From Escherichia phage FL12, in sequence record PP400786: 64,000 nt of DNA; one strand, given 5' to 3'. Position 1 is the first letter of the stretch. Every line of letters begins with the position of its first letter. The position numbers were made by a program, and so were the translations under genes. Below, in pieces: positions 5,794 through 57,131 of the stretch. Below the pieces are notes generated by a model. The model was not told the origin of the DNA, made no database searches, and worked only from the letters and a program-made list of their open reading frames with translations.

Positions 5794-6605
5794 TAGGACA
5801 TCCAACACATTTTATAACCTTTGCAGGTTCTGTTAGGATTATTTAATGCTTTCAATATATTAGAAGACCCTATATCTAAATACTCCCTTAATTCATAAAG
5901 ATAGTTAAAATCAACAGTTTCACCTGTTTTTACACTTGTGATTCTTATAGGCCTTCTTTCATATTTAGATTTATACAACTCTCTAGTCTTAGCTTTAGTT
6001 TCTTCTGACCTAGGAGTGTATGGTTTAAATCCTTTTGTTTTAAATGTTTCCATTCTTGATTTAGTTATTTTATCCTGGTGTTCTTTTGTTTTTACAGGTG
6101 CTTTTCGCCCATTCTCCCAAGATAACTTGTTGGCCTGTATTATTTTATCTATTGCTTCTTGCGTATGAGTTTTACCATAAAATGGATTTAATTCGCCTAT
6201 ACGTTGTGAAGCAATATGTGACATTAATTCTCTTGTTGCTTTAGTATGTTTTTTACCTTTAAATGGGTTGCCATTTTTAGCAATCCATTCTTTCATAAAT
6301 CTAGAGTGCTCTTTAGAGAATTCTTGTTTAAGCCAATCATAATCTCTAGAATTTCTAGCTCCCATGTAAAAAGCTCTAATAGCCATAAGCATAGAACGGT
6401 TCTTATGAATTTTATAAAGCAATAAATGGGCGATAAAATGCTCTCTAGGGGTCATTTTAACTAGATTTGATTTAGCATTACTCCCGCCCATAGATTTAGG
6501 CAAAATATGGTGAGTTTCAGTATAATTAGGAATAGTGCTGCGGTTTTTAGCCGCAGCGATAAGTTTATCATAAATTTTACGATAATTCATTATCGTAGCA
6601 TCCAA
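5793..6605 (-). CDS. HNH homing endonuclease (Mob-type) with NUMOD-like repeats
   Basis: 270 aa; HNH motif ETHHILPKSMGGSN...REH; repeated NPF(Y/K)GK(T/K)HT motifs; sits between rIIA.1 and gp39 as mobA does in T4; 5' end overlaps gp39 3' end. Confidence 0.75.
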   Translation of the reverse strand: MDATIMNYRKIYDKLIAAAKNRSTIPNYTETHHILPKSMGGSNAKSNLVKMTPREHFIAHLLLYKIHKNRSMLMAIRAFYMGARNSRDYDWLKQEFSKEHSRFMKEWIAKNGNPFKGKKHTKATRELMSHIASQRIGELNPFYGKTHTQEAIDKIIQANKLSWENGRKAPVKTKEHQDKITKSRMETFKTKGFKPYTPRSEETKAKTRELYKSKYERRPIRITSVKTGETVDFNYLYELREYLDIGSSNILKALNNPNRTCKGYKMCWMS

Positions 6606-48236: not shown

Positions 48237-48415
48237 TTAGAAATAGACTTTTCACCATTAGAATAATAAACTTCAAGTTTAGCACGATTATTTTTAATTT
48301 GAATAACCTTTGCTGTCATCAAAGTTCCATACCCATAATAAACTGCAACTTCATCACCTACATATACCGCGCTTCCGCGGTAATCGTGAATATAGTCAGT
48401 TCCTTCGAGCATCAT
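48200..48415 (-). CDS. hypothetical small protein
   Basis: 71 aa. Confidence 0.4.
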   Translation of the reverse strand: MMLEGTDYIHDYRGSAVYVGDEVAVYYGYGTLMTAKVIQIKNNRAKLEVYYSNGEKSISKWKYGDCMVKLG

Positions 48416-48675
48416 TTAAAATATTCTCGCAGTTGGTCAAATCCACCAATATAACTTTCATCAGGAGCAAATACCTGAGGCATTGTCAAGCCGATTTGAG
48501 TATCACGACCTAATTTAGTCAGAAGCTCAGCGATTTTCTCATCATCAAAAACACCTTTTTCCGGCATAATGTTGATAAATTCAAACGGCTGTTTCTTCAC
48601 GGTCAAAAGACGTTTTGCATTATCGCAATACACACATTTATGAATGTTGCTATCATAACCATATACTTTAAACAT
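48412..48675 (-). CDS. nrdC: thioredoxin/glutaredoxin NrdC
   Basis: 87 aa as T4 NrdC; CVYC active site. Confidence 0.8.
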   Translation of the reverse strand: MFKVYGYDSNIHKCVYCDNAKRLLTVKKQPFEFINIMPEKGVFDDEKIAELLTKLGRDTQIGLTMPQVFAPDESYIGGFDQLREYFK

Positions 48676-48919: not shown

Positions 48920-49220
48920 TTTCTTCTCGGTCAAATCGGTGTTTACAATGGCGGCATTTATAACGAAGATTACTAGTCTGCCAATGGACCAATTGCACCT
49001 GTTCAGTTCCACATTCAGGGCAATTAGGAACGTTTTTAGAAGCACGTTCGCGGCGTTCAACCATGACCATTACAGAATCCCAATTAACAGGAGGGCTATA
49101 ATCATCACAACCATGAATCTTTCCACGCATTTCTAGATCGTCTTCTTCACCAGCCATAATAATTTTAATTAAACTGGAATTACTTGAAGCTGCAATGTCT
49201 TCTAATAGACGCTTTTTCAT
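48906..49220 (-). CDS. zinc-ribbon protein
   Basis: 104 aa; CPEC...CRHC. Confidence 0.5.
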
Positions 49221-49262
49221 TTCAATACCTCAATAGCATTACGTAAACCATTTGCTTTTGCA

Positions 49263-49895
49263 TTAAGAGCTTTTAACAATTTGGTGTGTTCTGCAATTTG
49301 GGGCTTCAACTTCAATCAAACGAGCATTGAGATATTCGCGTTCTTCTTTCATAGTATCATTCCCATGATTGGGTTTTGGTGCAGATTTAAATTCACTAGG
49401 GTCCTTTAATTTAATAACAAATTTAGTTTCAAACAGTGAAAGACCATAATTCGTATTATCATCAAAGGATTTGACTACATCCATATCAGATAATAACACG
49501 CGCAAATTATAAGCCAAAGAACTAATAGTTTCATTGTGTTTATTAGCTTCGCGTGGTTTCATATACGGAAGATTTTTATATATCTCGTGCGGAGCACAAA
49601 TGATAATTGACAATTCAAATTGTCCATTCTGGGACGATGGAGTGAATTTAGCCGTAACCCAGTCTTTTACATTCACATTAATAGTACGGTTATCACCATG
49701 ACAAAACAGTCTACGAGAATGCTTAAAAAGCATATTCACGTTATTATTGAATTCGTGTGAAAATTCACTAGCAAATTTTTCTTTACTACATTTAGAAAGC
49801 CATTCTTCTGAATAAGTTCTTTTCACGTCGTTAATAATATTAAATGTAACAACACTAGCATTTGATACATTAGTCTCAATGTAGCTTGGATACAT
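49263..49895 (-). CDS. hypothetical protein
   Basis: 210 aa ORF. Confidence 0.5.
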   Translation of the reverse strand: MYPSYIETNVSNASVVTFNIINDVKRTYSEEWLSKCSKEKFASEFSHEFNNNVNMLFKHSRRLFCHGDNRTINVNVKDWVTAKFTPSSQNGQFELSIIICAPHEIYKNLPYMKPREANKHNETISSLAYNLRVLLSDMDVVKSFDDNTNYGLSLFETKFVIKLKDPSEFKSAPKPNHGNDTMKEEREYLNARLIEVEAPNCRTHQIVKSS

Positions 49896-50140
49896 AAATT
49901 TTTAACATTATTAACAGCTATTATAGAAGATAGTAATCGGGAACGTTTGAACCACTCGAGCAAAGAACCAAGAGAATGTGAATACGCATTTTGTGTATCT
50001 TTACAAATATGGTTTTCCCATCCAATATAGTCTAAAAAATCACGAAGAATATTATTGATTACTGCTCTGTGTCCTATCTGATAATTACGGTGTTTAGTAA
50101 TAAGACTGTCAAAATAATCAATATAATGTTTACGAGTCAT
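49823..50140 (-). CDS. hypothetical protein (start trimmed to ATG after GAGGAG RBS)
   Basis: ORF-track start at 50191 lies inside the early promoter; about 105 aa; 3' end overlaps next ORF by about 73 nt. Confidence 0.4.
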   Translation of the reverse strand: MTRKHYIDYFDSLITKHRNYQIGHRAVINNILRDFLDYIGWENHICKDTQNAYSHSLGSLLEWFKRSRLLSSIIAVNNVKNLCIQATLRLMYQMLVLLHLILLTT

Positions 50141-50167
50141 AATAATCTCCTCAGTAGAAAATAAGAA

Positions 50168-50199
50168 CATTATACCACATCCTTGTGGCAAAGTAAACT
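50168..50199 (-). promoter_or_regulatory. T4-type early promoter
   Basis: Minus strand GTTTACTTTGCCACAAGGATGTGGTATAAT. Confidence 0.5.
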
Positions 50200-51220
50200 A
50201 GTTCAGTGCATTTAGTGCATTGTTCAGTTTAGAACGTTGCTTCGTGAGATTTTTGACTTTTTCTTGTGCTTTTTCTAGCATCTTTTCAGCTTCTAACACT
50301 TCATTGGTCGCTTTAATGAGTTCAGCATCTACTGCCTTAAGAGACTTCTCAATCGCATCCGCGTGCCATTTTTCTACAGGTTTAAAATTTGAATTTTCAG
50401 TAGGAAGAAAACTCACTTTATTAAGTTTACATGCATCTATATTGCTTGAGCTATACATCCAAAATTTAGGATCGTTTGATGAGTAATTAGATGAATTTAA
50501 GGTATCTTGCACTTCCTGCTTTTTCTCTTGCGGGACTTCATCTTTTCTCAAAAATTCATATTTAAATGAAACGATCATATCAAGTTCATATGATGTTGTA
50601 TCTAACTTAAATCGTTCAAAACGAGGTAAAATCTTAGATTGAACAGCAGCAACAACATCCATATACTTAAATGCTTCTGTCAACTGCGATTTAAGGCATT
50701 CGCAAATTGAAAGAGAATTTTTTGTATTAGGTTTAAAGCTAATTCGTGCAGTTCTATTATTTTCTTTTAATGGTCTTACTTCCATCTGAAGAGTATAACC
50801 ATCAAATTTCAGGTTCTTTAAGTTAATATCAGAACCTTTTAATCGACTCGCAGTTGATAAAATTTGCTTTAACTGTCTACGGAACAGAGCAATAAATCTC
50901 CATTCAATACGATAATGATTTGGATTGAAGAATCCAGATGATAAATCGACCTTACTTTGACCAACGCCTTGAACAAATAGAGGATTTTTATAATCAATAG
51001 TTTTACAGAAATCGGTGAGCTGCTCACGAGCCGTCATTTGTGTGATATACCCTGCTTCATTAAAATTACGCACCCATTCACTGCTGTTCAGATGTTTAAA
51101 GGCGTGAATGGAACAATTAACTTTATTAAGGTCTAAATTATTTTCACACAAAAATGTCATAACATCACGAGTATAACTGGCATTACGAACCATATCTTCA
51201 ATTTGAGAACGAGTTTTCAT
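50198..51220 (-). CDS. hypothetical protein with C-terminal coiled coil, tandem paralog 1
   Basis: 340 aa; heptad-rich C-terminus; internal similarity to 51229-52137. Confidence 0.55.
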   Translation of the reverse strand: MKTRSQIEDMVRNASYTRDVMTFLCENNLDLNKVNCSIHAFKHLNSSEWVRNFNEAGYITQMTAREQLTDFCKTIDYKNPLFVQGVGQSKVDLSSGFFNPNHYRIEWRFIALFRRQLKQILSTASRLKGSDINLKNLKFDGYTLQMEVRPLKENNRTARISFKPNTKNSLSICECLKSQLTEAFKYMDVVAAVQSKILPRFERFKLDTTSYELDMIVSFKYEFLRKDEVPQEKKQEVQDTLNSSNYSSNDPKFWMYSSSNIDACKLNKVSFLPTENSNFKPVEKWHADAIEKSLKAVDAELIKATNEVLEAEKMLEKAQEKVKNLTKQRSKLNNALNALN

Positions 51221-51228
51221 AGTGTTCC

Positions 51229-52137
51229 TTAAGATTTAAGTAAATCAACAATTTTAATTAACTTTTCACGCTCAGATTTAGCTTTACTACTCAGTCCAGA
51301 TAGTCTGAAAATTTCATCGTCATATTGTTGAATAGAAATATTCAGCTCTTCAATTTGCTTATTAAAATAATCAATTTGTTCAGAATGTTTTTCGTTACTA
51401 CGAACTGGTACAGGTTTTGTAGGCAATTTAGTTGAACTGGATTCATCCGGGCGATAAATTAAAATACAACTTGAACCAATCGGGCATTTAGCACCAGATG
51501 AATATTCTAACGTTCCAGCTTCTTTTAAAACTTCAAAAGCTAAACAGAGATGATGCCCCATATTAACATAATCTGTAGAGCGAGCTCTGATATAATAATC
51601 ATCGCCGCGAATACTAAATTTAAAGCATTTAAGGTCTTCTGTATTATTGGTCTTAAAAATCATTTGTTTATCTAGACCTTTAGCCAATCGAGCGCCTAAT
51701 GCTAATAATCGTCTTTGATTTTCCCACAAATCTGCGATCATTTGGTCAAATGATAATTTCGGCATTAGTCGACCATAAAGGTCGTATCCTTTATTATAAT
51801 TGCGAAGGATTTCACTCGCATTAATACGAGACAATGCTCCAATTTTATTAAGGGCTTTCATAATGCGATTAGATAAACCCATTCCAGACCCGTTTGTTCG
51901 CTGCAAATGTTTTTCTAATCCAAATCCAATATCAACTTTAAATTTATCTAAAATTTCAGCATGAACATCTCTGTCAATAATATTCAAATCCAAAGTTGGG
52001 TTAAATCTATGAAAAAATTTATCTGGCTCTCCACGACGAAGTACAGTCCATTCATTTAATTTTTTATTAACTAAAGATTTAATTACTGCATTGACATTAT
52101 TAATTACTACTGACATATTTTCCTCACTCAATTTCAA
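51229..52137 (-). CDS. hypothetical protein with C-terminal coiled coil, tandem paralog 2
   Basis: 302 aa; shares (R)RQL...RL(K/A)G(S/L)D segment with neighbour. Confidence 0.55.
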   Translation of the reverse strand: MKLSEENMSVVINNVNAVIKSLVNKKLNEWTVLRRGEPDKFFHRFNPTLDLNIIDRDVHAEILDKFKVDIGFGLEKHLQRTNGSGMGLSNRIMKALNKIGALSRINASEILRNYNKGYDLYGRLMPKLSFDQMIADLWENQRRLLALGARLAKGLDKQMIFKTNNTEDLKCFKFSIRGDDYYIRARSTDYVNMGHHLCLAFEVLKEAGTLEYSSGAKCPIGSSCILIYRPDESSSTKLPTKPVPVRSNEKHSEQIDYFNKQIEELNISIQQYDDEIFRLSGLSSKAKSEREKLIKIVDLLKS

Positions 52138-52531
52138 TTTTACTAAATATACAGAATAAGATGGAACAGACTATATAAGCACCGCATACAGATTGAACTA
52201 ATACCATTCCAAAGAACCAAACAATATTATCAAACAATGTCTGTTTTACGTCGAAAGGACGTAAACTTACAGTAATATTATCACCTTTTTCTATTGAAGA
52301 ATACATCTCTGGGGAAATATATTCGCTAAATCTATAACCGTCTTTGAGTTCATATACGGCAATAAACGATAAACTAGACCCTTTTCCTTGTGTTCCTGTA
52401 ATGGTATTAACTACAGTAACATCATAATCTTTATAATGCATATAATCATTAATTGCGTAATAACCATATGCAACTACTACACATAAACAACATATCAATA
52501 AATTCAATCTTTTAATTATCAACTGTTTCAT
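52124..52531 (-). CDS. membrane protein
   Basis: 135 aa with N- and C-terminal TM helices. Confidence 0.5.
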   Translation of the reverse strand: MKQLIIKRLNLLICCLCVVVAYGYYAINDYMHYKDYDVTVVNTITGTQGKGSSLSFIAVYELKDGYRFSEYISPEMYSSIEKGDNITVSLRPFDVKQTLFDNIVWFFGMVLVQSVCGAYIVCSILFCIFSKIEIE

Positions 52532-52586
52532 AATAATCTCAATTAAAAGGGCTTAGAACCATTATACCATCCTTGGTATAAAGCGG

Positions 52587-53114
52587 TTATGCGAGTACCG
52601 TCTTTAACCGTTCTTCAAACTTCCGAAGAGTATTTTGGCGTTCAGCTCTTTGCTTTTTGTAAGTTTCAATACGCTCTGAAATGAGAGTGTATCGTTCATT
52701 TACTGATTCTTTCATAAAATCAGGAATTTCACGAGAAGCTTTAATCTCATCAAATTTATCAATAACAGCTTGCTCTTCAGCAATTAAGTTATCATACATC
52801 AAAATATCTTTCTTGATGAACTCAATATCTTCTTGAGTTACACGAGATAATTTAGATGCTTTATCCTTTTTGTACTGTTCGTTAGTATCACGAGACCAGT
52901 ATAATGTACGATTTTTATTCGTATTTTTGTAAATTTCTACAATACCAATTTCATCAATAATAACGATCCAATTCCAACGAGATTTGTAAATTTGTCCTCC
53001 ATCAACAGTGATTTCACCTCCGATTGAGATGTCATTAAAGAACTTGCTTTGTGCTTCAGATTTAAATTTACCATCGTTATAATTTACCAGGTTGAAAATA
53101 TCTTTAGCATTCAT
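52587..53114 (-). CDS. hypothetical protein (start trimmed to MNAKDIF... after promoter/leader)
   Basis: About 175 aa; ORF-track N-terminal extension covers promoter. Confidence 0.5.
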   Translation of the reverse strand: MNAKDIFNLVNYNDGKFKSEAQSKFFNDISIGGEITVDGGQIYKSRWNWIVIIDEIGIVEIYKNTNKNRTLYWSRDTNEQYKKDKASKLSRVTQEDIEFIKKDILMYDNLIAEEQAVIDKFDEIKASREIPDFMKESVNERYTLISERIETYKKQRAERQNTLRKFEERLKTVLA

Positions 53115-53173: not shown

Positions 53174-53488
53174 CTAAAAGAAACTTCTTTCACAATTTTT
53201 TCCACTGAACCACGCGCTCACTGCTTTCTTAGTCTCAGGAGCAGTGTTATCCATAAACCATTCAAAAGCAGCCTTTTTATGATTCTGGAGGGCTTCTCGG
53301 GCTTTAATCTGCTCACGGTCTATTAACACTAACATATGAGCCTTTCTTGTCACCAAGGGCTTCTTATGATTTTTTGAATACTCCCAATCATTTGTCCATC
53401 GCATCGTTGTTGCGAACTGAAATACAGCTTCTTTAATTTTAGTTTCGTAAATTTCACGAGCCTTTGAGTATAACATCACTACCTCCAT
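53174..53488 (-). CDS. hypothetical protein
   Basis: 104 aa. Confidence 0.5.
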   Translation of the reverse strand: MEVVMLYSKAREIYETKIKEAVFQFATTMRWTNDWEYSKNHKKPLVTRKAHMLVLIDREQIKAREALQNHKKAAFEWFMDNTAPETKKAVSAWFSGKNCERSFF

Positions 53489-53558
53489 TTACCAGTTTAA
53501 TTCTAGTCATCTTTTTGATGGCAGTCCATATAATCTATTTCTGAACTGCCTTTTTGTC

Positions 53559-54279
53559 TTAGGATTCTTCTAAATGTCTTTTCTGAAAAGTTGATACCAT
53601 ACTACGATACGGTTCATTTGGATATCCGTGTTTTATAGCTTCCTTTGTAAATTTTCTCCATCCACATTTAGTTTCTTTCCAGAGCTCGAATAATTCATCT
53701 TCATACTGCCATATAGTTAAATGAGAACGCTTTGCAGCTTTAATTCCATTAATATGCTTTTCTTTTACTGCAGGATTGCTTAGTTTCTTTTTAATAATAT
53801 TACTAACTTTTCTAACAAAAACCGGGTCCTTATATCGTTGCGAAGTTTTTATTGAAGTGTTTTAATTTAGCTTCCGGCGTGGATGTGACCTCTTTCATCT
53901 TTTTCTTCATATGCTGTATATGATTAGGATTTTTCCATAAATTTATAGAATGCTTTTTGCATTTTATCCTAGTTTCATCTGCAACCTTTCCTCCTTCACC
54001 CCCGTATGACAGGTTAACACAGTTTTTCCCATATTTCAATTTACCTGCCATGATATATAATATTTCAGCTTGTACCATTTTATCATAATTATCAAAAACT
54101 TCTAAAACCGTTTTTGATAATATGTGGTCATTTGACACTTTTACACGTTCTATATAATTTCCACTACCAACATACGAATCATTGATATTATTAGTTATAT
54201 GTCGACCATAATAGTATTTCTTAATACCTGTCTTTAAATTTAATATTTCAGTTTTATAGATAGTAAAATATTTTTCATT
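53559..54279 (-). pseudogene. decayed Seg-like GIY-YIG homing endonuclease gene, split across frames
   Basis: GIY-YIG N-terminus EKYFTIYKTEILNLKTGIKKYYYGRH...YVGSG lacks an in-frame start (ATG is 1 nt out of frame in an A5 run); middle ...KYGKNCVNLSYGGEGG and C-terminal ...IWQYEDELFELWKETK... segments homologous to the intact SegA-like protein but in a different frame. Confidence 0.5.
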
Positions 54280-55255
54280 TTAATAATACCGTTTCAGCGA
54301 TTTCTTCCCAATGGTTTTTGTCGGTCATAATAAAGTCAGCAAGATAAAGAGCAGTACGCAGTGAAACATTGCGTAAACGATTAACATTGACTTTCATCCA
54401 TGATAATGCTTTATAAGTTTCTTCATCAGAAAGACCGCGTTTTTGCATCATGTCAGTTGAAAGAATAACATCTTCAACCCTGACCATAATTTCTTCATTA
54501 GTGTGAACACCCAAATCTAAATAAACTGAGCGGGAAACTAATGCTTGTAAATGTGGAGCAAGTTTAGTACCACGGTCTAATTCGCGGTCAATATCAACGT
54601 TTGTGATAAAAACAATCGTTCCTTTAAATTCAAACTCGCGCTCAATGCCTTTTTCTTCTAAGTAAGAAGATGCAGTGCTCCAGCAGACTTTACGGGTCTC
54701 TCCAGTGTCCAGAGCAGCTTTCAGAAGATTAAGAATGTCCATATCAGAGAAAACATCCACATCATCAATCAAAAGGACAGAATTCTCTTCACGATTATTC
54801 CAAAGCTGCTCATAAAGACCAATACCAGAGATTTTACCGTTAATGCTTTTATATTCAATGTATCCAATATCATTTGCTTTATTCAAAGCTTTATCTAAAG
54901 AATACGTTTTACCAATACCCGCCGCACCAGAGATAATTAATGAACGAATGTTTCCGTTAATAATACCATTCGTCATCATTCCCATAACATTAAATCTTTT
55001 ATTAATGCGGGTTTTCATATCTTCATATGATTCTTTAACTTCTTCAACTTTTACACCATCATATGAAATGTCTGATTTGTAAACCCAAACACCGCGACGC
55101 TTACCGTCAATTTCAACAAAAACTTTACCATCTCCTTGTGCATCTACCGGAGCATTATCTGGGAACCATTCGCCTAAGAGCTCAAAAGTTCCAGAGATTT
55201 CTTTACCGAAGTAGATACCCTTATTGATAGTTACAGTTTTCATTTTATTCTCCAA
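54275..55255 (-). CDS. AAA+/P-loop ATPase of unknown function
   Basis: 326 aa; Walker A GAAGIGKT, Walker B LLIDDVD; own early promoter. Confidence 0.7.
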   Translation of the reverse strand: MENKMKTVTINKGIYFGKEISGTFELLGEWFPDNAPVDAQGDGKVFVEIDGKRRGVWVYKSDISYDGVKVEEVKESYEDMKTRINKRFNVMGMMTNGIINGNIRSLIISGAAGIGKTYSLDKALNKANDIGYIEYKSINGKISGIGLYEQLWNNREENSVLLIDDVDVFSDMDILNLLKAALDTGETRKVCWSTASSYLEEKGIEREFEFKGTIVFITNVDIDRELDRGTKLAPHLQALVSRSVYLDLGVHTNEEIMVRVEDVILSTDMMQKRGLSDEETYKALSWMKVNVNRLRNVSLRTALYLADFIMTDKNHWEEIAETVLLK

Positions 55256-55357: not shown

Positions 55358-56368
55358 TCATTTATAATAACTTCGGTGGTTTTCAAGATAGACCTTCTCA
55401 AGGAAGTCATCCCAAAAACCCATGTCTACTTTTTGCTGCATACCGTTCTTAGAAGCTTCAATAGATGCTGCTTCTACTTGATCGACCACATCTTCCAAAA
55501 ACTCTTGAACCGTTTTAAATGGATGTTTACCCAACTTCACGTCGAGAATAAATGGAGCATCTTTGAGTGGATAAACCAAGTCACCAGTTTTGTAAATTTC
55601 CAATAGTTGAAGTCCACCACGACAAGCATGACTCAAAGCTTTCCAGTCAATACCTTCGTTGGCTTCGGCCTTACGAGCACGTTCACCATATTCAGCATCT
55701 AGTTTGTTCAGTGACTGCTTAAGCTCAATAAGAGAAAGCGTTGTCTGATATTTACGACCCAACACAGTGTAGAACGTTTGTGGGCCTGTTTTCTCATGAT
55801 TATGGAACACCCATTCACAAAATTCGTTTTCTGGAAGACGATGCTTAATATCTTCAACTTTAGTGCGACGTTGCTTAATAGAACCATCTTCTTGGTAATC
55901 AACCCATTGCTCAGGGATTTGATTAACTACTTTCAATACATCACGTAATGCAGCCAAACGAGAACCCTTGACACCGTATTTAGAAGCTTGCTTGCGGACA
56001 TATCCTAAATATGATTTCATGTTAGTCGTATAAAAACGAGAACGGTTGTCTTGAATAAACTTCCACACATCAGGCAAATCAGATTTAACCACTAGCTCAG
56101 GTGGAGTGTGAAGCATATCTAATGCTACAGTTTCACCATCTGCTGCTAATTTAAAGAAATATTTAAGACTGTATAGTTCATGGTCAATATCATCTTTAGT
56201 GTTTTTAGATGATGTGTTGTTAGTGTTTTTACTCATGTGCTCTTTGACATTTCCGATAAGAATATCGCGAGCAGGAGGAACAAAAATTTCTTTAAAATCT
56301 ACATCAGATTCTGGGGTAGAAGTTCCATAAAGATGACTACCAAAATAAGACTTAACTACAGTTTTCAT
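55358..56368 (-). CDS. predicted nucleotidyltransferase (pol-beta-like fold)
   Basis: About 336 aa; NTase signature GSHLYGTSTPESDVDF; start overlaps 3' end of HNH gene. Confidence 0.6.
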   Translation of the reverse strand: MKTVVKSYFGSHLYGTSTPESDVDFKEIFVPPARDILIGNVKEHMSKNTNNTSSKNTKDDIDHELYSLKYFFKLAADGETVALDMLHTPPELVVKSDLPDVWKFIQDNRSRFYTTNMKSYLGYVRKQASKYGVKGSRLAALRDVLKVVNQIPEQWVDYQEDGSIKQRRTKVEDIKHRLPENEFCEWVFHNHEKTGPQTFYTVLGRKYQTTLSLIELKQSLNKLDAEYGERARKAEANEGIDWKALSHACRGGLQLLEIYKTGDLVYPLKDAPFILDVKLGKHPFKTVQEFLEDVVDQVEAASIEASKNGMQQKVDMGFWDDFLEKVYLENHRSYYK

Positions 56369-57131
56369 TATTAGACCTTTCATAATCTTCATTAAATTGT
56401 ACAATCAATCGATGATAATTAGATTTTGGATATCCTAATTTACTTATATAAGTTCCGAATGACCCACGTTTAGGTCTATTTAATTTAATCCATAACTTAT
56501 AAAGTAAGTCATAGTCTTGCCAATGTTTACCAGTTCTTTGTCTAATTTTAGATGAATTTGATTGTTTCTTTTTAGTTTCAAAATTATTCAAAGATTTTTT
56601 GACTGCAGCAGAGTGTTTTTCTTTAACTCCCGGTCGTTTAAAAGCAGCTTTCACCCCTTTAGATATTTTTTCTTTAACTTCCGGTTTGTTTTGTGCTTCT
56701 AACTGGGATTCTGAAATTTTAGCCCTTATTTCAGGAAGACTTAATGTTATCGAACGTTTTTCTCTGTATTCATTAGACTTCCACATTTCTTTCATTGTAT
56801 TAGAATGTATTTTTGAAAATTTTTCTCTAACTAACTGATATCCTCTTGAAGTTAATTTGAGATTTCTTCCTAAAGAATCTTCTCCAAAATTATAAAATGA
56901 CCACCATGCATAAATTAATCCAGGCGAATTATAATGAATTTTAGCTAAAAGCCAATGGGCTATAAAATGCTCTCTAGCTGTTAATAAAACTAGATTATCA
57001 GAATCATCATTACCACCAATACAAGATGGAATAATATGATGCTTTTCCGTATAAAAATTTAATTTAGATTTATCTAATTTTCTGAGTTTTCCTTTCTTAA
57101 TTAAATTATTATATACTTTAGTATAATTCAT
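56352..57131 (-). CDS. HNH homing endonuclease (Mob-type, mobD position)
   Basis: 259 aa; HNH motif EKHHIIPSCIGGNDDSDNLVLLTAREH; paralog of 5793-6605. Confidence 0.75.
   Translation of the reverse strand: MNYTKVYNNLIKKGKLRKLDKSKLNFYTEKHHIIPSCIGGNDDSDNLVLLTAREHFIAHWLLAKIHYNSPGLIYAWWSFYNFGEDSLGRNLKLTSRGYQLVREKFSKIHSNTMKEMWKSNEYREKRSITLSLPEIRAKISESQLEAQNKPEVKEKISKGVKAAFKRPGVKEKHSAAVKKSLNNFETKKKQSNSSKIRQRTGKHWQDYDLLYKLWIKLNRPKRGSFGTYISKLGYPKSNYHRLIVQFNEDYERSNNENCS

Follow-up and report, generated by a model that had tools for sequence, protein, structure and literature searches.

In the variable nrdC-to-mobD interval of a T4-like phage genome, two adjacent genes encode proteins of similar size that both finish in long helical tails, and a small membrane protein is encoded beside them. 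Are the two proteins related, and what do they do for the phage? We addressed these questions in a window of 64,000 nucleotides from Escherichia phage FL12 (PP400786), which is a Tequatrovirus (T4-like) genome. A preliminary description of the window had listed three open reading frames (ORFs), and all three are real: 50198-51220(-), encoding 340 aa; 51229-52137(-), 302 aa; and 52124-52531(-), 135 aa. By sequence comparison they are nrdC.5, nrdC.6, and nrdC.7 of T4-type phages, respectively.

The nrdC.7-nrdC.6-nrdC.5 block

The neighboring genes confirm the placement of the block in the nrdC-to-mobD interval: the window contains nrdC, nrdC.1, nrdC.2, nrdC.7 through nrdC.11, and mobD, in synteny with T4, and the DNA alignment with T4 is collinear from nrdC.5 through nrdC.9. 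All three genes lie on the minus strand and are transcribed in the order nrdC.7, nrdC.6, nrdC.5, so that the membrane-protein gene lies upstream of the other two and not downstream, the position that had been described. The overlap originally noted between nrdC.7 and nrdC.6 is an artifact of ORF calling, since the maximal nrdC.6 ORF (51229-52137(-), 302 aa) is extended to a TTG codon. The ATG at 52116, which has a GAGG Shine-Dalgarno sequence and corresponds to the start of the 295/296-aa homologues, is probably the true start, giving a protein of 295 aa (51229..52116, minus strand) and leaving 7 nt between the nrdC.7 stop and the nrdC.6 ATG; nrdC.6 and nrdC.5 are separated by 8 nt. In 501 phage records the three genes occur together as a conserved block, with nucleotide identities of 90-99%, and dN/dS values of 0.03-0.24 indicate purifying selection on each of them. 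A locus scan of IMG/VR returned only 13 close relatives.

Inspection of the sequence 5' of nrdC.7 revealed a T4 middle-promoter-like site (52561..52586, minus strand; MotA-box-like CCGCTTTA, 12 nt, TATAAT), and the homologous site in phage fPS-65 is annotated 'predicted middle promoter'. Directly after the nrdC.5 stop is a T4 early-type promoter (50169..50197, minus strand; TTTACT, 17 nt, TATAAT), annotated 'predicted early promoter' in fPS-65; the nrdC.7-6-5 unit ends at this putative promoter and appears to be transcribed as a whole in the early or middle period. Matches to σ70-like and terminator-like patterns within the genes were set aside as noise because their counts agree with the shuffled expectation.

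The first gene of the block, nrdC.7 (52124..52531, minus strand), encodes a 135-aa protein that belongs to phrog_2547 and is 91% identical to T4 NrdC.7, itself annotated as a predicted membrane protein. Its description as a two-helix membrane protein holds up: hydropathy places transmembrane (TM) segments at residues 3-27 (52451-52525, minus strand) and 103-130 (52142-52225, minus strand), and the Kyte-Doolittle score of 19-residue windows exceeds 1.6 across residues 1-29 and 102-134. The positive-inside rule, applied to K2, K7, and R8, suggests an N-in topology. NrdC.7 appears to be unrelated to NrdC.5 and NrdC.6 and to be co-transcribed with their genes, and no functional link with the pair is evident.

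Many GenBank records, in the hundreds, name genes of the nrdC.x block 'thioredoxin'. For NrdC.5 and NrdC.6 we reject this identity: neither has a thioredoxin match in Pfam or NCBIfam, the CxxC motif is absent from both sequences, and the predicted models are not thioredoxin-like. The label was apparently inherited from the nrdC.x nomenclature, and hundreds of records are thus flagged here as mislabelled.

Architecture and remote relationship of NrdC.5 and NrdC.6

The product of the 340-aa ORF (50198..51220, minus strand; phrog_2351) is matched by Pfam DUF7235 (PF23882) across residues 1-340 with 383.9 bits (cut-off 30; E 8.3e-115), and judged by its 91.8% identity to T4 NrdC.5, equal length, and identical neighbors it is the ortholog of that protein. 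The ~8% of residues that differ are found chiefly at residues 30-45 and in the linker. The AlphaFold2 (AF2) model, which is of moderate confidence (pLDDT 71.7, pTM 0.58, with an input alignment that includes NrdC.3 and NrdC.4), consists of an N-terminal helical head (aa 1-128; 50837..51220), a ββαββ domain (aa 142-219; 50564..50797), a disordered, indel-rich linker with pLDDT <50 (aa 229-280; 50381..50536) that is the most variable stretch of the family alignment, and a C-terminal coiled-coil tail (aa 281-340; 50201..50380) modelled as one helix from 281 to 339, all encoded on the minus strand. Two conserved helix pairs within the head (46-69 and 105-128) align with NrdC.6.

NrdC.6 (~97% identical to its T4 ortholog) is matched over its full length by phrog_2257 (E 1.2e-152), and a precomputed PF26899 annotation is carried by 105/105 of its homologues. 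The C-terminal tail is intact in the window protein, whereas that of the T4 reference is truncated by a 1-nt deletion that causes a frameshift. The AF2 model (pLDDT 79.3) contains a ββαββ domain (aa 165-221; 51454..51624, minus strand) and a C-terminal helical tail (aa 242-295; 51232..51393, minus strand), and these are preceded by conserved helix pairs (aa 81-150; 51667..51876, minus strand) that form a core common to NrdC.3, NrdC.4, and NrdC.5. Invariant columns of the NrdC.6 family cluster at 86-157, and conserved columns are also seen at 240-294. The long coiled-coil tails attributed to both proteins are not equally clear, as judged by an ad hoc score of heptad periodicity used in place of a dedicated coiled-coil predictor: residues 283-340 of NrdC.5 have a continuous, unbroken 3-4 heptad pattern that scores at least 0.7 in every scoring window, whereas the pattern in NrdC.6 is weaker, is confined to 245-274, and falls in a tail whose model is a hairpin of two helices (242-271 and 277-294).

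The two proteins had been described as a tandem paralog pair with shared internal sequence blocks. Such blocks do not reach significance, and pairwise alignment, the check that had been set for the pairing, does not reveal the relationship: the best BLASTP match between NrdC.5 and NrdC.6 has an E-value of 0.009 over 21 aa, which is not significant, and hhalign comparison of the two family alignments without intermediates gave a probability of 0.2%. Pairwise BLASTP of all nrdC-region proteins likewise found nothing significant between families, and hhalign of NrdC.6 against merged NrdC.3+NrdC.4+NrdC.5 reached only 2.8% (E 0.016). These failures would be expected if NrdC.5 and NrdC.6 were non-homologous early proteins whose tails had come to be alike by module shuffling or convergence, the pairing being only apparent and created by their size, position, and tails. 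The existence of P0261, in which the NrdC.5 tail sits on an unrelated 173-aa head, also favors this explanation and shows the tail to be modular, so that tail similarity alone is no proof of common descent; so too does NrdC.8, which ends in an amphipathic helix yet shows no relationship.

Against non-homology stand the results obtained when the profiles were extended with intermediates. The comparison of NrdC.6 with NrdC.5 (C6x-C5xx) then gave a probability of 86.6% (E 4.4e-6), in a match that spans only ~86 columns; it pairs residues 50-168 of NrdC.5 with 86-171 of NrdC.6 and lies in the head, outside the coiled-coil tail. In a column-shuffle control, the real score was 24.9 versus 14.7±2.7 for the shuffles, and 1/150 shuffles reached the real score. 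Three bridging proteins (P0255, P0262, and P0253), as well as single-copy members in IME523 and JD18, are matched both by the C6 HMM and by the C5/C4 HMMs, and the matches of P0255 (positions 48-254 of C5x and 7-278 of C6) run across the globular parts of both families. The AF2 models, compared through their secondary-structure strings, have a common order of helical head, ββαββ domain, disordered linker, and C-terminal helix, and in Foldseek searches both match the predicted phage structures A0A2Z4QAR2 and A0A1V0DXL6 of BFVD over their full length. Finally, single-copy members occupy the syntenic site in other genera. We consider non-homology unlikely, and the extended profiles and structures together support the conclusion that NrdC.5 and NrdC.6 are paralogs that have diverged very far. 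The paralogy thus stands as remote homology. This sisterhood is new here; the anti-Dsr1 role of T4 nrdC.5 was already known.

A proposed superfamily and variation at the locus

The relationship extends beyond the pair. With extended profiles, NrdC.3/NrdC.4 are matched by NrdC.5 at 97.4% (C5xx-C43x; E 1.5e-11) and by NrdC.6 at 91.5% (C6x-C43x; E 8.7e-7). The C3-C4 and C5x-C4 comparisons gave 98% and 76%, respectively. We propose, based on these profiles and the models, that NrdC.3, NrdC.4, NrdC.5, and NrdC.6 form one superfamily that is restricted to Tevenvirinae and found only in phages; NrdC.5 and NrdC.6 would then be related as had been described, but as part of a larger family and not as a pair alone. 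In the plan common to its members, a helical head is followed by a small ββαββ domain, and a disordered linker whose length varies then leads to an amphipathic helix of ~55 residues at the C-terminus. The divergence is considerable: T4 NrdC.3/NrdC.4 (PF26897) constitute a Pfam family separate from those of NrdC.5 and NrdC.6, with pairwise identities of 14-24%, and the four-family alignment has zero invariant columns and just a near-invariant Pro before the tail, while the tails themselves are alike in a C-terminal 'L..A(L/I)..LK'. Only 28 representatives at E<=1e-3 were recovered among 1.84 billion proteins. NrdC.8, whose helical tail had suggested that it might be a fifth member, was rejected when no relationship could be detected, the one exception being a weak Foldseek match between the NrdC.5 model and a KPV15 protein of 175 aa.

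A third member is present in the window as an nrdC.3 remnant (49220..50140, minus strand) that carries -1 and +1 frameshifts and is driven by the promoter and start codon of nrdC.4, nrdC.4 itself having been deleted by a crossover between the 5' ends of the paralogs. Across genera, superfamily copy number varies from 1 to 4 per genome, with most copies located in the nrdC-nrdC.11 region, and natural chimeras and duplications are found (P0056, P0057, and P0261).

Possible roles in counter-defense

Of the pair, only NrdC.5 has an assigned activity: T4 nrdC.5 neutralizes Dsr1, a SIR2-domain abortive-infection defense protein, and when supplied alone from a plasmid it lets a deletion phage plate again on MG1655 cells that carry dsr1 of ECOR17 (Srikant et al., 2022, eLife, PMC9391042). 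Anti-Dsr1 activity is demonstrated for the T4 allele and predicted for that of the window. Searches of the literature found no other protein inhibitor of Dsr1 and no functional data on nrdC.4, nrdC.6, nrdC.7, DUF7235, PF26897, or PF26899.

As had been noted at the outset, there is no obvious enzymatic motif: no column is invariant in all four families, and no enzyme-domain matches were obtained. Scans of Pfam, PHROG, NCBIfam, and PADLOC returned only DUFs and PHROGs of unknown function, HMM searches of PDB sequences with the NrdC.5 and NrdC.6 family profiles found nothing meaningful, and neither protein matched an enzyme or defense family in any of Pfam, NCBIfam, PADLOC, and the PDB sequences. 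The reading we prefer, at a probability of roughly 0.6, is that NrdC.5 and NrdC.6 are oligomers without enzymatic activity that bind immune proteins of the host, encoded as paralogs in the early/middle nrdC block. The NrdC.3-NrdC.6 proteins would be made ahead of the buildup of late phage proteins; their heads would bind an immune sensor or effector of the host and keep it inactive, and oligomerization and avidity would come from the coiled-coil tail. NrdC.5 would target Dsr1, its binding allowing the phage to grow on Dsr1-carrying cells, and the family may have diversified by tandem duplication, inter-copy recombination, and loss. Both direct binding and oligomerization through the tail are what we infer, and since NrdC.6 is a distant sister of NrdC.5, it becomes a candidate counter-defense gene.

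A proposed parallel for such binding is DSAD1, the SPbeta inhibitor of DSR2, a small, non-enzymatic phage protein that binds and blocks a SIR2-domain defense NADase. By analogy, NrdC.5 may act through binding to Dsr1. The comparison is one of proposed mode of action: the targets differ (DSR2 and Dsr1), and descriptions of DSAD1 mention no coiled-coil tail. The NAD+ reconstitution pathways NARP1, NARP2, and NARP3 likewise counter Dsr1-type NAD+ depletion, but these are enzymes, whereas NrdC.5 and NrdC.6 have no enzyme domain or conserved catalytic residues.

A broader version of binding, which we offer tentatively, is that NrdC.3-NrdC.6 constitute a diversifying array of immune-sensor inhibitors on a single scaffold, in which the heads are tuned to different defense proteins and the tails homo- or hetero-oligomerize into a multivalent counter-defense complex.

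The membrane protein might instead be central, with NrdC.7 as an anchor that recruits the coiled-coil pair to the inner membrane and all three proteins acting as one membrane-associated system, for example to exclude other phages or to sense or block a membrane-bound defense. The tight packing of the genes behind one promoter-like site and the retention of the block in about 500 genomes are consistent with this, and in Dhaka-like phages, where nrdC.7 is missing, a different two-TM ORF of 67-71 aa lies between nrdC.6 and the nrdC.5-like gene, which keeps a membrane link of NrdC.5 and NrdC.6 conceivable. Small membrane ORFs, however, are common in T4-like early regions, other genera keep superfamily members without NrdC.7, neither NrdC.5 nor NrdC.6 was found to have a TM segment, a signal peptide, or any feature of lipid binding, and plasmid-borne nrdC.5 is by itself enough to restore infection of dsr1+ cells. 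We regard such a system as improbable.

Less likely still, NrdC.5 could be a structural decoy whose ββαββ domain mimics a protein of the tail-terminator/tail-tube superfamily and would occupy a defense sensor without activating it, by analogy with DSR2, for which DSAD1 and the tail tube protein compete. That NrdC.5 and NrdC.6 are virion or assembly components is hardly credible: phages often have structural proteins with coiled-coil tails, and the long coiled coil and a weak resemblance in fold to proteins of the neck and tail, including tail terminators, fit such a role, but the promoter context is early/middle and not late, the genes are often deleted or frameshifted in nature, they are dispensable, in that the deletion phage, whose deletions spared the 62 essential genes, still plates on MG1655 (PMC9391042), and there is no sequence homology to any structural family. 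Judged by sequence family, late expression, and presence in the virion, NrdC.5 and NrdC.6 were not placed among the tail terminator or tail completion proteins; the clear virion-protein homology that would have spoken against the preliminary description was likewise not found.

The modular plan of head, linker, and coiled coil provides domain boundaries as handles on the mechanism of NrdC.5, and NrdC.3, NrdC.4, and NrdC.6 are three further candidate counter-defense genes. The recombination-prone nrdC locus is a possible reason that this region varies between otherwise near-identical T-even phages, variation that bears on the prediction of host range for phage therapy. Should the four families prove to be an inhibitor array, the gain, loss, and recombination of copies at the locus would directly determine T-even host range.

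Organisation of the nrdC.7-nrdC.6-nrdC.5 block

The window comes from a Tequatrovirus (T4-like) genome. Its 2.3-kb region of interest has matches in 501 phage records, with nucleotide identities of 90-99%, and 492 of these cover at least 80% of the region. Comparison with the annotated T4 record identified the ORFs as nrdC.7 (52124-52531, 135 aa), nrdC.6 (maximal ORF 51229-52137, 302 aa) and nrdC.5 (50198-51220, 340 aa). All genes in this region are on the minus strand and are thus transcribed from high to low coordinates; as the preliminary description had it, the three lie between nrdC (48412-48675) and mobD (56355-57131). They are real genes: dN/dS is 0.03-0.24 when the window is compared with T4 and IMG/VR relatives, and each product has a full-length match to a PHROG family.

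The same description placed a two-helix membrane protein downstream of a paralog pair, overlapping its second member. NrdC.7 does contain two hydrophobic stretches (3-27 and 103-130) and, as its N-terminus is basic, may be oriented N-in, which would expose a ~75-residue loop on the non-cytoplasmic side. However, nrdC.7 opens the block and lies upstream of nrdC.6 and nrdC.5, and the overlap is also lost when the nrdC.6 start is revised. The 302-aa ORF starts with a TTG within the 3' end of nrdC.7; seven codons further on, an ATG at 52116 is preceded by GAGG and corresponds to the start used by 295/296-aa homologues, which leaves a 7-nt gap between the genes.

Just upstream of nrdC.7 is a MotA-box-like sequence, CCGCTTTA, followed by a 12-nt spacer and TATAAT; phage fPS-65 has a predicted middle promoter annotated at the equivalent site. 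Because of this site, and because a typical T4 early promoter directly follows the nrdC.5 stop, the three genes seem to be transcribed together, as a single unit, ahead of the late genes. Many GenBank records (hits H1-H25) label nrdC.5, nrdC.6 and nrdC.7 'thioredoxin', and one labels nrdC.7 'Mur ligase domain-containing protein'; neither label has sequence support, and the misannotation appears to have spread from the nrdC.x gene names.

Elsewhere in the window, there is ~700 bp extra relative to T4 between nrdC.9 and nrdC.10 (53480-54290). In RB32, RB33 and others this stretch carries the annotation homing or 'intron-like' endonuclease, and 66 of the 501 matching records have it in full length; its 102-aa ORF (53830-54138) has no Pfam match. 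A second region with 38% protein identity to T4 MobD, at 6132-6590, probably encodes a further homing endonuclease of the HNH type, mobC for example.

Evidence for remote homology between NrdC.5 and NrdC.6

Simple pairwise tests fail to support the proposed paralogy: the best BLASTP match between NrdC.5 and NrdC.6 has an E of 0.009 over just 21 residues, and hhalign gives their family alignments a probability of 0.2%. They belong to different Pfam families (PF23882 and PF26899, respectively), and NrdC.3 and NrdC.4, which are clearly related to each other (hhalign 98%, E 1e-13), share a third, PF26897. The families are connected through intermediates. In Dhaka-like phages, the nrdC.5 position is occupied by a gene for a protein of 268-307 aa whose identity to T4 NrdC.5 is 22-27% (E as low as 7e-27), and adding these sequences to the NrdC.5 profile links it to NrdC.4 at 76%. 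When a four-family profile was run with HMMER against 1.84 billion representative proteins, only 28 were found at E<=1e-3, among them a dozen distant members, 285-348 aa long, that align with most of the profile. Several of these distant members match the HMM of NrdC.6 as well as those of NrdC.5 or NrdC.4: P0262 (NrdC.6 6e-12, extended NrdC.5 1e-4), P0253 (3e-11 and 7e-4) and P0255 (3e-3 over its full length, and 5e-6 for the globular part).

With profiles extended by strongly supported intermediates only, hhalign relates NrdC.6 to NrdC.5 at 86.6% (E 4.4e-6), NrdC.6 to NrdC.3/NrdC.4 at 91.5% (E 8.7e-7), and NrdC.5 to NrdC.3/NrdC.4 at 97.4% (E 1.5e-11). In a column-shuffle control with the unextended profiles, 1 of 150 shuffles reached the real score. 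In the two AlphaFold models (pLDDT 79.3 for NrdC.6; 71.7 for NrdC.5, whose input alignment also included NrdC.3 and NrdC.4), the predicted elements follow one another in the same order, from a helical head through a ββαββ unit (residues 142-219 of NrdC.5 and 165-221 of NrdC.6) and a low-confidence linker to a C-terminal helix. Searched with Foldseek against predicted viral structures, both models match, over the full length, uncharacterised proteins of ~300-335 aa encoded by other T4-like phages; two entries are common to both models (Klebsiella phage Mineola and Yersinia phage fHe-Yen9-01). The modelled structures thus agree with paralogy.

Coiled-coil tails had been described for both proteins. 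The NrdC.5 tail fits, with an unbroken 3-4 hydrophobic repeat over residues 283-340 and a single modelled helix (281-339), but the NrdC.6 heptad signal (245-274) is weaker and the model folds its tail into a helical hairpin (242-271 and 277-294). That the two proteins have only their tails in common, without true homology, is unlikely: the profile match joins heads, not tails (NrdC.6 86-171 with NrdC.5 50-168). We consider NrdC.5 and NrdC.6 to be distant paralogs, with a probability of about 0.8, and place NrdC.3, NrdC.4, NrdC.5 and NrdC.6 in one Tevenvirinae-restricted superfamily.

The window's NrdC.8 (52587-53114, 175 aa) likewise has a long amphipathic helix at its C-terminus ('...ERLKTVLA'), and hhalign found no relationship between it and the NrdC.3-NrdC.6 family. 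The NrdC.5 model also has a weak Foldseek match to a 175-aa Klebsiella phage KPV15 protein (E 2.8e-3).

Copy number and rearrangement

Tequatroviruses carry up to four tandem copies of the superfamily (locus L003), Dhaka-like phages three (nrdC.6, the nrdC.5-like gene and nrdC.4), Tegunavirus two at separate sites, and Kanagawavirus IME523 and Jiaodavirus JD18 one each, syntenic, between nrdC.10/nrdC.11 and nrdC. The nrdC.3-nrdC.6 locus is unstable. The window lacks nrdC.4; at the junction (50095-50205), the T4 nrdC.4 early promoter, its Shine-Dalgarno and 'ATGACTCGTAA' are kept and run into nrdC.3 coding sequence, which points to a crossover between the two genes inside the 5' codons that they share. 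The window's nrdC.3 (49220-50140) is in three reading-frame pieces (-1 in a T-run near 49899, +1 near 49300), reflecting either a pseudogene or sequencing error. In the T4 reference, nrdC.6 has one T fewer than in the window and most relatives (10097-10155 of L002, against window 51321-51380); owing to the frameshift, the ~37 C-terminal residues, the greater part of the coiled-coil tail, give way to a short end read out of frame. Among homologues, P0056 is a chimera of NrdC.5 (from residue 146) and the C-terminal half of NrdC.3, P0057 (Shigella phage Sf25) is NrdC.6 with an 83-aa internal duplication, and P0261 (173 aa) joins an unrelated head to a near-identical NrdC.5 tail.

Other observations at the locus can be added. 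The tail of the window's nrdC.3 is closer to an HX01-type homolog (P0223) than to that of T4. In one IMG/VR Tequatrovirus genome, nrdC.4 is broken into ORFs of 193 and 158 aa (L006 9950-10982), a further instance of decay. Dhaka-like phages lack nrdC.7; between their nrdC.6 and nrdC.5-like genes is an ORF of 67-71 aa with two hydrophobic helices (8762-8977 in L007, and in the same position in L008-L015), which overlaps the start of the nrdC.5-like gene by ~20 nt.

Counter-defence and a possible mechanism

A T4 clone with large deletions does not grow on ECOR17, owing to the SIR2-domain defence gene dsr1, and plating on dsr1-carrying MG1655 was regained once nrdC.5, then an uncharacterised early gene, was expressed from a plasmid (Srikant et al., eLife 2022, PMC9391042). 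The window's 340-aa ORF is 91.8% identical to T4 NrdC.5. We found no later literature on the NrdC.5 mechanism, and none on nrdC.4, nrdC.6 or nrdC.7. The preliminary description saw no obvious enzymatic motif, and this is borne out: the four-family alignment has no invariant column, the only near-invariant one being a Pro just before the tail, and no enzyme, defence or solved-structure family was detected for NrdC.5 or NrdC.6.

We propose that NrdC.5 may be an early-made, non-enzymatic protein, oligomerised through its coiled coil, whose head would bind Dsr1 and hold it inactive. Such an action would be comparable in function to that of the SPbeta inhibitor DSAD1 on DSR2. A counter-defence role for NrdC.6 is possible, at somewhat less than even odds. 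That NrdC.7, NrdC.6 and NrdC.5 instead form a three-part membrane-associated system would fit their close gene packing and the different small two-TM ORF adjoining nrdC.6 in Dhaka-like phages, but nrdC.5 alone is sufficient (PMC9391042), and we regard such a system as rather improbable. A tail-terminator-like decoy is less probable still, and a virion component scarcely credible.

The preliminary description was sound at its core, but that nrdC.5-nrdC.7 are T4 genes, and that nrdC.5 has a counter-defence role, was already known; corrected here are the order of the genes, the start codon of nrdC.6 and the 'thioredoxin' label found in many records. The present work contributes the remote-homology link that unites NrdC.3, NrdC.4, NrdC.5 and NrdC.6 as a modular family of variable copy number. 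Within it, the conserved helix pairs and tail would provide the scaffold and mediate oligomerisation, evolutionary change would be concentrated in the variable N-terminus, β domain and linker, and NrdC.6, NrdC.3 and NrdC.4 may direct the same scaffold at other host targets.
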